A stretch of DNA of 30,681 nucleotides from a virus (lineage: Duplodnaviria; Heunggongvirae; Uroviricota; Caudoviricetes), in IMG/VR virus record IMGVR_UViG_3300025430_000014, positions 1-30,681 of that record. One strand, written 5' to 3'. The translations under genes were made by a program, and so were the position numbers. A model generated the notes under the pieces. That model was given only the letters and a program-made list of their open reading frames with translations. It searched no databases and was not told the DNA's origin. How positions within the stretch are numbered: position 1 is the first letter of the stretch; each line of letters starts with the position of its first letter. Below are positions 15,482-27,987 of the stretch, piece after piece.

Positions 15482-15768
15482 TAGCTATCTAATGATATTT
15501 CAAATGTGATTGTAGCAGAGCTTTTAATACTCTTACTTAAATCTAGCTTGATTTGAAATATGTTATGCAGCTTTAATATTTCTTCTAGAAGCATATCATT
15601 GTACATAGGTAGGCTAGGAGCCAGTCTAAAATGATATGAATGTGGATTGCGTGTAATCTCTAAATTAGAAAGTTCATCCACAGAAGATATAATTCCTTCT
15701 AAATGAGCAAAATAAGCAACTTCGTTGTCATTCATCACTTGAGGGAAAAACTTTTTATTAACTAGCAT
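15481..15768 (-). CDS. Hypothetical protein
   Basis: 95 aa with TAATG coupling at both ends. Confidence 0.75.
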   Translation of the reverse strand: MLVNKKFFPQVMNDNEVAYFAHLEGIISSVDELSNLEITRNPHSYHFRLAPSLPMYNDMLLEEILKLHNIFQIKLDLSKSIKSSATITFEISLDS

Positions 15769-15929
15769 TATACAATAGTAGTGGTAGTGGTTGTAGTTTC
15801 TTCTACAATAGTTGTTGTTGTAGAGGTTGTAGGTATTTCTATTGTAGTGGTGGTAGTTGTAGTAATTTCACCACTAATTATAGCCTTCACCTTAGCATTA
15901 GTTGCTTTAATCTTATTTATATCTATCAT
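15768..15929 (-). CDS. 53-aa Thr-rich microprotein (MIDINKIKATNAKVKAIISGEITTTTTTTIEIPTTSTTTTIVEETTTTTTTIV)
   Basis: Translated by hand; 21 Thr; TAATG coupling to the next gene; mixed ACT/ACA/ACC codons. Confidence 0.75.
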   Translation of the reverse strand: MIDINKIKATNAKVKAIISGEITTTTTTTIEIPTTSTTTTIVEETTTTTTTIV

Positions 15930-15943
15930 GATTATATTTTTAA

Positions 15944-16378
15944 TTAGTCAGCATATGCTGCAGCTTGCAATTCTGTACATCCACCAGCTGCAAATATAGC
16001 AGATACATCATAGTTCACTTCTAATAGTAATTCACCATACGCATCCACTTTGAAATATCCATACTGTGAAGCATATTGATTCAACAAAGAAGCTAATGCA
16101 TAAATATCAGCTGCATTGTGTGTAGTGTATACAGTCATGTAAGAACCAGGACCTGTGTTACAAACTATTGTAAAGTCCACACTTGTAATAGGAAAGCTAC
16201 CTTCTACAGTAACTACAATGGTTTGTTGATCTTGATTGCAGCATTGGTATCCTTGTACTTCTTGCCATTTGCCTACCTTTGGTATAGATCTACGTAGTAC
16301 TAAACTACCTGCTACCACACGTCCGCTACCATCATAACGAACATAAGCTTTTAAATCCCTTTTGTTAATGCTTCCCAT
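15944..16378 (-). CDS. Hypothetical, probably structural, protein
   Basis: 144 aa beginning LKAYVRYDGSGRVVAGSL...YQCCN; lies among small putative structural genes. Confidence 0.7.
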   Translation of the reverse strand: MGSINKRDLKAYVRYDGSGRVVAGSLVLRRSIPKVGKWQEVQGYQCCNQDQQTIVVTVEGSFPITSVDFTIVCNTGPGSYMTVYTTHNAADIYALASLLNQYASQYGYFKVDAYGELLLEVNYDVSAIFAAGGCTELQAAAYAD

Positions 16379-16396
16379 AATTCTTAATTAATTAGG

Positions 16397-17413
16397 TTAA
16401 TAGTTGAGGTTATATTTTTCTTTTAATTGTATAAGTTTTGTAACATAATAATATGTACCTCTTTTCATAGAGTCTTCATTATTAGCCACCTTAGTTATTT
16501 GACTGTCTTTAAAAGGATCTTTTCCTGTATGGTAGAGTCCTTTATAGAAAGCCTGATATCCAGGCATGTCATTAGATGTAATTCCAGCATTGTGATATAA
16601 ACCTAGCTTATTTACCTTCTCTATATCATCTGATGCCCAAGAGAAATCCATTTCTGGAATGTTTTTAGTTTCTTTATCTTTCAACCAAAGGTTCCATAAC
16701 ACAGCCCACATATCAGCACACCAGCTTTGGAATCCTTTATTCTCATCAGCAAAGAATTGTTTGTTGATGTGTTGTAAGTATCTTCTAATGATAATACAAT
16801 CATTCATCACCTTTGCCCAGAAATTAGCATCCACTCCTTTAAGGAAGTATTGTGCTCCTCCTGAATTATCATTGTTAGCTTCTGCTATTTCCCTAGTGAT
16901 ACCTATTAAGCTTGTTATTTCAGCTAGTACATCTCTAGTTTTATATTCTTCTAGCTTCTCTGGAAGCACATCAGCTATTTTACTATCAAAATATGAAGCG
17001 TTGATGTAACTATTTGTATCTGATAGATAACAAATGTCATCAGCTATGTAGTCATCTATATTAAACTTATCTGTAAAGAGGATATCACAATCACAATAAA
17101 ACACTGCTTTGCTAATCATCTCTGGATGTTCTTTGAAATATCTCATTAGAACATATGGACGTAAAACAGGAATATACACATTCAACACTTGACTAACATC
17201 TCCTTCATCTTTATAATAAGCAAACTCTGCTTCTGGATATAAATCCTGAATCTTTTGCCACTTATCACTTTTTTCTCTAAAGCTAGGAGTGTACACAAGT
17301 ACAATTGCCTTATCTGAATATCCAAGTTCTTTCAAGCTTTCCAACCATGCATGCACCTGCCAAGTATAGTAGGTATCATCTGGCTGGGCACAGATAAACT
17401 TTAAATCCTTCAT
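16397..17413 (-). CDS. GT-A glycosyltransferase resembling plant peptidyl-serine galactosyltransferase (GT96) and Hyp arabinosyltransferase (GT95)
   Basis: DxD in VFYCDCDILF, plus YYTWQV, YIPVLRP, GGAQY and WCADMWA motifs in the order seen in SGT1/HPAT. Confidence 0.6.
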   Translation of the reverse strand: MKDLKFICAQPDDTYYTWQVHAWLESLKELGYSDKAIVLVYTPSFREKSDKWQKIQDLYPEAEFAYYKDEGDVSQVLNVYIPVLRPYVLMRYFKEHPEMISKAVFYCDCDILFTDKFNIDDYIADDICYLSDTNSYINASYFDSKIADVLPEKLEEYKTRDVLAEITSLIGITREIAEANNDNSGGAQYFLKGVDANFWAKVMNDCIIIRRYLQHINKQFFADENKGFQSWCADMWAVLWNLWLKDKETKNIPEMDFSWASDDIEKVNKLGLYHNAGITSNDMPGYQAFYKGLYHTGKDPFKDSQITKVANNEDSMKRGTYYYVTKLIQLKEKYNLNY

Positions 17414-17443
17414 ATTATGTAGTTATTGGTTTTTTTTTATTCT

Positions 17444-26021: not shown

Positions 26022-27081
26022 AATACACCACGTTGATGGACTATATTTTGAAATAATAGAAGATGAAGGGAAGAATAGAGAGTATGATGTTATGTTCTAT
26101 GATAACACCTCTATGTCAGTTGTATATGATGTAAAGCTTAAACCAGGAAGTTGGGCAAAGCTAGATAGAAAATACCTATCTGATATAAGTGTGATAATGA
26201 GATGGGAAGGACGTACAATAAAGCAAATTAACTTTCTAGATGAACTAGAGGGTAAGAGAGTGTTTATTACATTTGATAGTTCAGCACTTGGTGATACAGT
26301 AGCATGGATGCCTTATTGCTTAGAGTTTGCTAATACATATAAATGCAAAGTGATTGTTTCTACGTTTAAGAACTTCTTATTTGAAGAGGCATATCCTGAG
26401 CTAGAGTTTGTAGATAGAGGAACTGTGGTAAATAATATCATTGGTATGTTTAATATTGGGTGGCATTGGAATACATCTATGGAACCTACTAATCCTATTC
26501 TAATACCATTACAACAAGCAGCTAGTAATATTCTTAACTTACCATTCAAAGAAATAACTCCTAGGATGGCTTTTGTTCCAAAAGAAAGACCTGTAATAAG
26601 TAAGTACATCTGTATATCTACAAAGTCTACAGCACAATGTAAGCATTGGTATTACTGGCCAGAACTTATTGAACAGTTAAAAAGTAAAGGGTATAGAGTG
26701 TTTGAGATGAGCAAAGATGCAGATGATTATGGAGCAGAGAAGCTAGAAGATACATCACTAGAGAATGTAATGAAATATATGTATTATGCAGATGACTATA
26801 TAGGACTATCTAGTGGATTAAGCTGGCTTAACTGGGCTCTTGGAAAACACAGTGTAATTATTAGTAACTTTACAAATGATGGTCATGAGTTCACATCCAA
26901 TTGCACACGCATCACTAATACAGATGTGTGTCATGGATGTTGGCATAATCCTTTATTTAGATTTAATAAAGGAGATTGGAATTGGTGCCCAGTCAATGAA
27001 AATACCCCTAGACAGTTTGAATGTCATAAGGGTATTTCTATGTCAAAGGTTATTAATGCTATGCATTTTGAAGAAGAGTAA
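26008..27081 (+). CDS. Aah/TibC-like (BAHT) protein O-heptosyltransferase homologue
   Basis: ALGDTVAWMPY, GLSSGLSWLNWALG, and CHGCW...WCP...RQFEC four-Cys motif. Confidence 0.8.
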   Translation: MIIYKIHHVDGLYFEIIEDEGKNREYDVMFYDNTSMSVVYDVKLKPGSWAKLDRKYLSDISVIMRWEGRTIKQINFLDELEGKRVFITFDSSALGDTVAWMPYCLEFANTYKCKVIVSTFKNFLFEEAYPELEFVDRGTVVNNIIGMFNIGWHWNTSMEPTNPILIPLQQAASNILNLPFKEITPRMAFVPKERPVISKYICISTKSTAQCKHWYYWPELIEQLKSKGYRVFEMSKDADDYGAEKLEDTSLENVMKYMYYADDYIGLSSGLSWLNWALGKHSVIISNFTNDGHEFTSNCTRITNTDVCHGCWHNPLFRFNKGDWNWCPVNENTPRQFECHKGISMSKVINAMHFEEE

Positions 27082-27517
27082 AGAATACAGGATAGTTTCC
27101 TTCTGATTCAATACCGTCTAGAATATCAATTGATAATTGTTTATATTCTAGTTCTCTTTCTTCTTGTAAGAGAGCATTGTATTCAGTTTGAAACTGTATA
27201 AATTCTGGATTAGGATCTCCAGAAATCATCTTTCCAGATTCATCCATCACCTGATTTATATACATTTGTATACTGTAATTACCTTGATCATCACTAGATC
27301 CATGTTTCTTGATTATTTCTTCTTTCAAAGATTCACAATCTTTCTTTACATCAGTTACCTTCTTGATTAAATCATTTAACCAATACTTTGTAACTAACTT
27401 TAGCTTTTCACCTAATAAGCCTTTAGAAATCACTTCACCAGTTTGCTGATTAGTTAATCCATTTAACTCTGCTTCTAGAGCATAAAACTCATAGAGCTTA
27501 AGAACAATTTTTTCCAT
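27059..27517 (-). CDS. Hypothetical helical protein
   Basis: 152 aa; 23-bp convergent overlap with the GT operon; own promoter motif. Confidence 0.75.
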   Translation of the reverse strand: MEKIVLKLYEFYALEAELNGLTNQQTGEVISKGLLGEKLKLVTKYWLNDLIKKVTDVKKDCESLKEEIIKKHGSSDDQGNYSIQMYINQVMDESGKMISGDPNPEFIQFQTEYNALLQEERELEYKQLSIDILDGIESEGNYPVFFTLLQNA

Positions 27518-27534
27518 CTTTGGTTTATTTTATT

Positions 27535-27548
27535 TACAAAAATACTAC
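27535..27548 (-). promoter_or_regulatory. -7 element TATTTTTG within GTAGTATTTTTGTA
   Basis: Identical 14-mer on the + strand at 21387-21400. Confidence 0.6.
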
Positions 27549-27573
27549 AATTATATTAAATAATAAAATTTAT

Positions 27574-27987
27574 TTACACTATTGTTGTTGTGGTACTAGT
27601 TGTAGGATCTATAGTGGTAGTAGTGGTGGTAGTTGTTTCTGGAGCTAATGTTGATGATGTTGTTGTAGTAGTAGGAGCTACAGTGGTTGTTGTAGTGGTT
27701 GTAGGCTCTGGATAATCACCAACAATAGTAAGATTAAGCTGTTTAGCTATCCAATCATATGCATATTGGTTAGTTTCATAAGCAAGATAATCTGCACCTG
27801 TCATAACTAAATTTCCTGATACTATTGGAGTCAATCCAACCATTGGATACATATCAATTGCTGTACCAATTCCATACCAAAAATTTGCTTGTGTACTTAA
27901 ATTGTCATTAATTACATAAGAGTTTAAAGCATCAGCTTCTACTGTTTGTCCGTTGTACCACATTTGTACTGGTTCAATTTGTTTCAT
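27574..27987 (-). CDS. Tail-fibre-associated protein with a long Pro/Thr mucin-like C-terminal tail
   Basis: Globular N-terminus, then PEPTTTTTTTVAPTTTTTSSTLAPETTTTTTTTIDPTTSTTTTIV. Confidence 0.8.
   Translation of the reverse strand: MKQIEPVQMWYNGQTVEADALNSYVINDNLSTQANFWYGIGTAIDMYPMVGLTPIVSGNLVMTGADYLAYETNQYAYDWIAKQLNLTIVGDYPEPTTTTTTTVAPTTTTTSSTLAPETTTTTTTTIDPTTSTTTTIV

Follow-up and report, generated by a model that had tools for sequence, protein, structure and literature searches.

Two candidate protein O-glycosylation units, one linked to poly-threonine tails and one to a collagen-like fibre, in a crAss-like phage genome

Two Separable Candidate Units

Bases 1-30,681 of an IMG/VR virus contig of 94,681 bases (IMGVR_UViG_3300025430_000014; estimated completeness 82%), hereafter the window, carry six glycosyltransferase (GT) genes and several small proteins ending in runs of threonine (Table 1). 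Protein glycosylation is supported as the best reading of these GTs, and we favour, as somewhat probable, the view that the window holds two separable phage-encoded units for cytoplasmic protein O-glycosylation that act on the phage's own virion proteins. The core unit (unit A) would consist of the enzyme encoded at 16397-17413, which would glycosylate the hydroxyls of poly-Thr tracts with a host nucleotide sugar. Its acceptors in the window would be the C-terminal tails of the small fibre-anchor or decoration proteins starting at 15768, 17444, 27574 and perhaps 18373, and outside it the linkers or tails of two fibre-like proteins, the muzzle protein and a 386-amino-acid (aa) head-module protein. 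In the accessory unit (unit B, 20984-27081), a TibC/Aah-family enzyme would probably add the first sugar, a heptose if donor specificity is conserved, to Ser or Thr of a collagen-like fibre, after which a GT9 enzyme, two GT4 domains and GT-A/GT25-like domains would probably extend it. Since both units occur in one genome and are separable within its clade, each enzyme set can be assigned to its own acceptor type. Enzyme families and folds, soluble character, gene order and co-variation across genomes were computed directly; from these we infer the acceptors, the sugars and the arrival of the products on virions.

A comparable arrangement is described for the mycobacteriophages Che8, Corndog and Myrna, of which the virions are O-glycosylated (Freeman et al. 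2023, as cited in PMC12619734 and PMC13313380), with glycans on the C-termini of capsid and tail-tube subunits (as cited in PMC12619734). As far as these citing papers relate it, phage GTs are paired there with C-terminal virion tails, and glycosylation takes place in the cytoplasm, the glycans being exposed on the particle. The same pairing is present here, as Ser/Thr-rich C-terminal extensions on virion proteins co-exist with phage GT genes, and the same route is proposed from the genes alone. The enzymes, however, belong to other families (a GT96/95-like GT-A enzyme and a BAHT cassette), and the phage is a crAss-like podovirus, with hosts and phage type unlike the mycobacteriophages. In place of the major capsid protein, the C-terminus of which is plain here, the fibre, anchor and muzzle proteins are the candidate acceptors, together with a collagen-like fibre.

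The GT-A Enzyme of Unit A

The protein encoded at 16397-17413 has no sequence match in Pfam, NCBIfam or the Protein Data Bank (PDB), and matches phrog_4417 with an E-value of 1.8e-51. Its family comprises 2076 clusters at 90% identity (771 at 50%), some members being fused to GT2, GT6, GT32-type or methyltransferase domains. An AlphaFold2 model built on an alignment of 41 diverse members reaches a pLDDT of 96.5, and both aspartates of the DxD motif as well as H274 are invariant across these 41 sequences. Searched against 550,129 Swiss-Prot models, the six best matches are all SGT1 or HPAT enzymes (TM-score 0.52-0.66), headed by Arabidopsis SGT1 (GT96; TM 0.66, E 5e-10) and including HPAT1-3 (GT95; TM about 0.6) and Chlamydomonas SGT1 (TM 0.52), while the best folds in the PDB are glycogenin and GT6 enzymes. 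Because the structural alignments with SGT1 and HPAT show an identity of only 10-13%, the protein is not filed as a member of GT96 or GT95; its modelled fold resembles theirs and suggests that it may work like them. At this level of fold, the GT96/95-like call of the initial annotation, made from motifs, stands.

The likeness extends to the GT-A fold with its DxD motif, common to this protein, SGT1 and HPAT1-3. The plant enzymes act on hydroxyl side chains in repetitive extended tracts such as extensin Ser-Hyp4 (PMC4908140). They are Golgi or endoplasmic reticulum membrane proteins, whereas the phage protein is predicted to be soluble and cytoplasmic, and its acceptor would be Thr, unlike theirs. 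On the Kyte-Doolittle scale, no 19-mer of any GT exceeds a hydrophobicity of 1.3, which bears out the earlier statement that they lack membrane anchors, and the enzymes of both units are thus predicted to be soluble and cytoplasmic.

Poly-Threonine Tracts and Their Carriers

Four poly-Thr open reading frames (ORFs) had been listed in the initial annotation, and all four are present where it placed them, on the minus strand. Across the ORF set of the whole genome, 12 runs of at least five Thr are observed versus 0.05 expected from composition, a roughly 200-fold excess, and 200 shuffles yielded at most one such run. The pattern (ACN)6 has 24 matches on the coding strand and none on the other, compared to 0 and 4 on the two strands for the reversed control pattern. 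The runs are not simple DNA repeats, as ACA, ACT and ACC codons are mixed within them.

The 48-aa protein ends in TTTTTTTAAPR and its ORF lies 30 nucleotides upstream of the GT-A gene, in agreement with the earlier remark that a poly-Thr ORF directly precedes the GT96-like gene. Over 33 N-terminal residues, this protein shares 61% identity with the beginning of the neighbouring C1q-like fibre (E 3e-12), so that both have the same N-terminal anchor module. It belongs to a family of 46-62-aa ORFs that end right after the Thr run and that occur in 12 of 13 fully compared genomes and at further loci (none was seen in G018). The protein is a putative 'glycan whisker' acceptor. The stop codon of the 53-aa ORF overlaps the next start (TAATG), and G018 and L033 encode a 90-aa homologue of which the Thr/acidic tail is longer. 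In most relatives, members of the 'ECC' family carry a poly-Thr/Ser tract directly after the CC motif (...ECCNxxPTTTTT...), a tract that the copy at 15944-16378 has lost. Tails of variable length characterize the family of the 137-aa protein (G017, G003, L032), which is present too in G005 and G007, two relatives without unit B; the match of phrog_14018 to this protein spans the Thr tract only. No homologue of the 36-aa ORF at 18373-18483 turned up among 13 genomes and 56 loci, and it is doubtful as a gene.

A search of the whole genome added four poly-Thr carriers outside the window: the muzzle protein, two fibre-like proteins and the 386-aa head-module protein. The tracts are located on virion-module proteins, as had been claimed. 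The last of these proteins (73490-74650; L004 13490-14650) has the C-terminus TTTTTSSTSSTSTTTSTTTLIP and no Pfam or PHROG match. In five related genomes, its Ser/Thr tail is followed by a conserved LIP or RIP terminus. A weak Atlas lead (0.83) points to the auxiliary capsid protein of crAss001, but PF25650 does not match.

Co-Variation of the GT-A Gene with Poly-Threonine

The crAss-like comparison included this genome and 12 related genomes of 92-119 kb, to which four more contigs were added later. The GT-A gene is present in all 13 fully compared genomes (64-85% identity) and is adjoined on one or both sides by a poly-Thr ORF in 12 of them; in G018 only a mixed Thr-rich ORF stands beside it. 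These poly-Thr neighbours fall into two families, namely the 'ECC' proteins and the 46-62-aa proteins with fibre anchor and Thr tail. The GT cassette of unit B, syntenic in 56 viral contigs, behaves differently. It is absent from five of the related genomes (G004, G005, G007, G011 and G012, with G007 being 100% complete and having terminal repeats), each of which keeps 3-7 poly-Thr ORFs, and the number of such ORFs is independent of the cassette (4-7 without, 3-9 with). Conversely, four cassette-bearing contigs outside the clade, totalling 390 kb, lack the GT-A gene and hold a single (ACN)6 match altogether. Among the GTs of the window, only the GT96/95-like gene co-varies with poly-Thr. The expectation of the initial annotation that Thr tails and GTs occur together therefore survives for that gene and falls for the five-gene cassette, which is distributed independently of the tails.

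The association reaches far beyond crAss-like phages. Homologues of the GT-A protein (26-35% identity) occur in 77 isolate phage records. In each of ten sampled isolates, infecting Enterococcus, the Lactobacillus group, Lactococcus, Clostridium, Staphylococcus or Chryseobacterium, the homologue lies within the structural module, with Thr-rich tails or linkers on neighbouring virion genes. For example, gp45 of Enterococcus phage phiFL1A ends in ...TTTTTKPTTTTTKPTTTTTTTQG and its tail-tube protein gp50 in ...TTTTTSTTTTTTSSTTTTTTTQASSK, while a capsid-like and a tail-like protein of Lacticaseibacillus phage R9.1 both end in ...T(7-9)SHV. Similar cases are phiCTP1 gp18 (Clostridium), RQ1 (Staphylococcus), Planchet and 4995_1 (Enterococcus), Lactobacillus phage Semele, bIL285 orf50 and Chryseobacterium phage MA9V-3. 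In the small isolate genomes, all (ACN)6 tracts lie within the Thr-tailed structural genes. As a control set, eight phages with a tail-tube protein homologous to phiFL1A gp50 and without the GT were taken (four Streptococcus prophages, phiJL-1, Silenus, cIP1 and SPP1). In each of them, this protein ends just past the shared PGETTGDY..NI motif, without a Thr tail, and no Thr-rich frame was found at these control loci. A Thr tail thus accompanies the GT in 9/10 phages versus 0/8 without it (Fisher, about 2e-4 by our own arithmetic, for a sampling that is not fully independent). Of two distant homologues located through their exact sequences, one has a Ser/Thr-rich gene as its immediate upstream neighbour.

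Unannotated Thr-rich frames were also seen past or overlapping the ends of capsid or tail-tube genes, in bIL285 (L217 21165-21181), Planchet (L221 3742-3888) and RQ1 (L220 3614-3934). They may be frameshift or read-through extensions that tail a fraction of the subunits.

The Enzymes of Unit B

The last cassette gene (26008-27081) is, judged by its sequence, a true member of the TibC/Aah family (BAHT), a call that had been made from motifs and is now upheld by profile and full-length matches. It scores 223.2 bits with TIGR04414 (cut-off 200), residues 24-352 covering model positions 27-371 of 374, and matches TibC (4RAP) over the full length with an E-value of 1.6e-40; with PF01075 (GT9) it scores 23.8 bits (gathering score 22). 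The catalytic Asp of the LGD motif (TibC D110) is kept, where the D110A form 4RB4 reads LGA. So are the four iron-finger Cys with spacings of +3, +16 and +12 (TibC C339, C342, C358 and C370), CHGC...WCP...FEC aligning with CYGC...WCP...FEC of TibC. These residue roles were established for TibC, and BAHTs are initiating enzymes acting on protein Ser (PMC4358343). TibC and Aah are cytoplasmic O-glycosylators of repetitive protein substrates, as is proposed here. Their partner is an autotransporter, whereas the candidate acceptor here is a collagen-like fibre. A cognate autotransporter was sought in the window and the genome without result; the neighbours of the gene are phage fibre genes. Other differences are that the gene is a phage gene within a multi-GT cassette and that versions in relatives are fused to other GT domains. 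In G002, G006, G009, G010 and G021, open frames of 1045-1177 aa carry the TibC-like domain at their C-terminal end, from which it appears that cassette genes have been fused into single multi-GT polypeptides.

The cassette opens with a GT9 protein (21365-22363) that scores 50.8 bits with PF01075 (gathering score 22) and matches LPS (lipopolysaccharide) heptosyltransferase II (1PSW) with an E-value of 6.5e-5, every NCBIfam heptosyltransferase model remaining below its cut-off. The adjoining divergent DUF6165 gene stands beside the cassette in 39/56 loci, and the GT4 gene at 25005-26021 is syntenic in 43/56.

The second gene encodes an 882-aa protein with three domains. Residues 164-275 match Glycos_transf_1 (GT4; E 1.5e-9), and residues 320-882 are modelled by AlphaFold2 (pLDDT 80) as tandem GT-A domains, the layout also found in COLGALT1 and LH3. 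The best fold matches of this model (its residues 4-551) are COLGALT1/GLT25D1, LH3 and Mimivirus R699, with E-values around 1e-10 and TM-scores around 0.25; moreover, 90 of the 100 nearest named Atlas clusters of the C-terminal domain carry PF01755. The term 'GT25-like' denotes this modelled likeness in fold, together with a language-model likeness, and not membership. With the additional GT-A domain, the six GT genes of the initial annotation remain six, and its count of about seven domains rises to eight. The position of the 882-aa gene next to a collagen-like fibre gene recalls collagen glycosylation by GT25 enzymes such as COLGALT1/GLT25D1, LH3 and Mimivirus R699. Metazoan GT25 enzymes use hydroxylysine, in contrast to the Ser/Thr-rich, proline-free triplets of the fibre here. 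A glycosylated collagen-like protein is known in BclA of Bacillus anthracis.

Matches with 41% identity and 90% coverage to the 882-aa protein occur in the 735-kb uncultured megaphage records LR756501 and LR756503. In L014, L022, L025, L026, L027 and L045, an extra gene downstream of the 882-aa homologue is a diverged copy (25-30%) of the middle GT-A domain (residues around 325-500); in view of these second copies, that domain appears to behave as a mobile module.

A Collagen-Like Fibre Travels with the Cassette

In this genome, the cassette adjoins a giant fibre gene (28983 to around 35981) that encodes 169 proline-free Gly-X-Y triplets with 55% Ser/Thr. The initial annotation lacked this link. 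It had expected the cassette to vary with the Thr tails, and the fibre gene is what varies with it. A Ser/Thr collagen-like fibre is present in 10/10 cassette-bearing genomes, always near the cassette, versus 0/5 cassette-free genomes in which the region is covered, a split with a probability of about 3e-4 by our own arithmetic among genomes that are kin and genes that are linked. A sixth cassette-free contig, G023, does have such a fibre and is uninformative, since it ends 3 kb beyond it. Over all loci, the fibre lies within 10 kb of the TibC homologue in 39/56, including distant groups with around 50% TibC identity and no poly-Thr; TibC loci without such a fibre mostly have short flanks. In one distant group, TibC is fused to a GT4 domain and stands beside carbamoyl-, methyl-, amino- and acetyltransferases for sugar modification. 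Relatives without the cassette have different GTs: G004 and G007 each encode a GT2, and G004 additionally encodes a true GT25.

One glycan-synthesis island (L041 21-11053) comprises a carbamoyltransferase, two FkbM methyltransferases, a DegT aminotransferase, a PglD-like acetyltransferase, a GT2, an FtsJ-like methyltransferase and a GT4-TibC fusion, with a Ser/Thr collagen-like fibre gene adjoining.

Weighing the Two-Unit Reading

Several points weigh against the two-unit reading. The case is built from predicted families, modelled folds and co-variation, and the genomes of the crAss-like clade are close kin (capsid 96-98% identical), so that counts within it are not independent. For unit A, the distant GT-A homologue in L232 has no Thr-rich gene in 5.5 kb (the contig ends at the gene), and the capsid gene of bIL285 lacks a tail, though its tail-tube gene has one. 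For unit B, linkage alone could account for a joint gain or loss of the fibre gene and the cassette, which adjoin each other. Known BAHT substrates are beta-helical autotransporters and not collagen-like repeats. The PF01755 (GT25) hidden Markov model has no match at E<=0.01 in this genome, whereas the separate GT25 gene of a relative scores 56 bits in the same search, and the TM-score of the C-terminal fold match of the 882-aa protein is low. GT9, GT4 and GT25 are classic LPS-core families, and LPS-core enzymes are soluble too. Finally, the supply of ADP-heptose would depend on the host. An Epimerase-family gene for nucleotide-sugar synthesis was not found in this genome or four relatives, and the sugars must therefore be host-derived.

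Given these LPS-core families, the cassette might instead remodel a glycan of the host envelope (LPS core, capsule or an outer-membrane protein), leaving only the GT-A gene to act on the virion; a block of superinfection, or keeping progeny off debris, are possible purposes. The cassette is a separately oriented island with a patchy, moron-like distribution and adjoins the lysis genes, which fits such a role. We nevertheless regard it as unlikely, if deserving of attention, because the last gene passes the curated model of a protein-glycosylating family and the cassette tracks one phage fibre type across distant phages, where TibC is fused into large multi-GT proteins within sugar-modification islands that adjoin such fibres. 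In addition, no integrase-linked context of lysogenic conversion was seen, though no systematic search for it was made.

Also improbable, and slightly more so, is the pathway of the initial annotation, in which all six GTs together initiate and elongate an oligosaccharide on the poly-Thr tails. In its favour, the GTs share a soluble character and occupy one 16-kb stretch among fibre genes, the GT2 and GT25 of cassette-free relatives could be alternative elongators after a conserved initiator, and poly-Thr also terminates the collagen-like fibres of some relatives. The pathway is contradicted from both sides, by the five relatives that lost the cassette and kept undiminished poly-Thr and by the cassette-bearing contigs outside the clade that have essentially no poly-Thr and no GT96-like gene. 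Furthermore, BAHTs themselves initiate on protein Ser (PMC4358343).

The poly-Thr tracts could also be plain, unglycosylated flexible linkers or spacers, with the GT-A enzyme acting on a cell-wall polymer or a small molecule. Many tracts in the clade are indeed internal, between an anchor and a distal domain, and Thr/Ser-rich linkers are widespread in secreted bacterial proteins. We give this explanation little credence, since the tracts of Firmicutes phages are terminal with nothing beyond to link, homologous tail-tube proteins bear them only when the GT gene is present, and several window proteins are little more than an anchor and a tail.

Lastly, glycosylation of hypermodified phage DNA bases against restriction, for which phage GTs decorating hydroxymethylated bases are a well-known model (Pyle et al. 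2024, as cited in PMC12619734), is very improbable: the enzyme families are protein or LPS types, the GT genes lie in fibre modules away from the nucleotide-metabolism genes, and a search for a thymidylate-synthase-family hydroxymethylase was negative for this genome and four complete relatives but positive for the control genomes, in keeping with the preference of the initial annotation for protein over DNA.

Genome Setting

The genome is assigned to the crAss-like phages because its capsid protein matches PF23898 and a 1613-aa protein matches PF25731. Since the capsid is 96-98% identical in the best 80 of at least 597 viral contigs, the clade appears to be very abundant in the environment. 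The nearest major capsid protein among isolate phages, that of a cyanophage, is only 26% identical and too distant to point to a host; a nucleotide search of 15-28 kb against isolate phages gave zero matches.

The features of the window and the relevant genes beyond it are compiled in Table 1. The lysis block stands between the fibre/GT-A array and the GT cassette; besides the endolysin, it encodes two small transmembrane proteins and a 218-aa protein that has a membrane segment near its N-terminus. The fibre/GT-A array ends with a homing-endonuclease-like gene of GIY-YIG type (14879-15481), in which NUMOD-like basic motifs are repeated. The structural strand also encodes small Lys/Gly-rich proteins and a highly basic 42-aa peptide (12653-14663 and 18242-18370), which may be internal or DNA-binding virion proteins. 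A scan of 15-28.5 kb for sigma-70 promoters and terminators was uninformative, promoter-like sites being rarer than in shuffles.

The sixth GT gene, of GT31/Fringe type (11271-11975; Fringe E 0.001), is real but weakly matched, and lies outside the range 15768-27987 to which the initial annotation had assigned it. It has no homologue in the 12 relatives and appears, by sequence, to be a strain-specific extra without visible link to unit A or B.

Table 1. Features of the window and of the remainder of the contig relevant to the two candidate units.
Position	Strand	Feature	Basis or remark
1-12 kb	+	Replication and nucleotide genes	Nucleotide-metabolism genes at 5-10 kb
11271-11975	+	GT31/Fringe-like GT-A gene in replication module	Galactosyl_T 25.7 bits (cut-off 23)
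From 12.4 kb	-	Structural and fibre array	
15768-15929	-	53-aa protein, three Thr runs; proposed acceptor	Sequence
15944-16378	-	144-aa 'ECC' family protein	Homologues adjoin the GT-A gene in every genome
16397-17413	-	Soluble 338-aa GT-A glycosyltransferase	phrog_4417; DxD at D108/D110
17444-17590	-	48-aa protein, fibre-anchor module then Thr7 tail; proposed acceptor	
17597-18136	-	C1q-like short fibre	Pfam C1q E 2e-4, below cut-off
18373-18483	-	36-aa ORF, doubtful gene	C-terminus TTSTTTTTKA
19133-20849		Lysis block	GH108 + PG_binding_3 endolysin, small transmembrane proteins
20984-21415	-	DUF6165 protein, divergent from cassette	Pfam PF19662 E 1e-12
21365-27081	+	Plus-strand island with GT cassette	
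21365-22363	+	GT9 (heptosyltransferase-family), first unit B gene	Pfam Glyco_transf_9 E 1.9e-13
22360-25008	+	882-aa three-domain transferase	GT4 (GT-B), GT-A, GT25-like GT-A
25005-26021	+	GT4 glycosyltransferase	Glycos_transf_1 27.5 bits (cut-off 26.4)
26008-27081	+	TibC/Aah-family (BAHT) protein O-heptosyltransferase homologue	
27574-27987	-	137-aa protein, 40-residue Thr-rich C-terminal tail; proposed acceptor	
28190-28999	-	Laminin-G/ConA-like protein adjoining giant fibre	Pfam Laminin_G_3 E 3.9e-8
28983-30681	-	Giant fibre gene, C-terminal part in window	Continues to ~35981 outside window
61575-66416		Muzzle protein, 1613 aa; poly-Thr carrier outside window	crAss muzzle family PF25731
70100-70618, 70638-71333		Fibre-like proteins; poly-Thr carriers outside window	
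73490-74650		386-aa protein; poly-Thr carrier outside window	
76885-78438		Major capsid protein	Pfam PF23898 (Crass_capsid)

Implications for Phage Biology

In a literature search whose coverage left most subscription journals outside, we found no paper tying these enzyme families or their pairings to phage particles. To our knowledge, actinobacteriophages and giant viruses of eukaryotes are so far the only cases in which experiments have demonstrated glycosylation of virions by phage enzymes. As a wider proposal, put forward tentatively and as a whole that we would not rate at even chances, phages may carry two portable, orthogonal systems of enzyme and tag for cytoplasmic protein O-glycosylation. 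Jointly, this would entail that the GT96/95-like transferase recognises a bare poly-Thr tag, that this system spans crAss-like phages as well as sipho- and myoviruses of Firmicutes, that a branch of the BAHTs is specialised for proline-free Gly-Ser/Thr collagen-like repeats, that sugar-coated virions are common in nature, and that the small proteins made of an anchor and poly-Thr are fibres of which the working end is a glycan and not a folded domain. Culturable carriers of the GT-A gene are Enterococcus phage phiFL1A, Lacticaseibacillus phage R9.1 and Chryseobacterium phage MA9V-3. If true, the poly-Thr tag and its single soluble enzyme would make a very simple genetically encodable glycosylation tag. 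Sugar coats would then be a widespread trait among phages that infect Bacteroidota-type and Gram-positive hosts, and could influence how particles adsorb, how stable they are and how the immune system recognises them in phage therapy, as well as the interpretation of virion proteomics.

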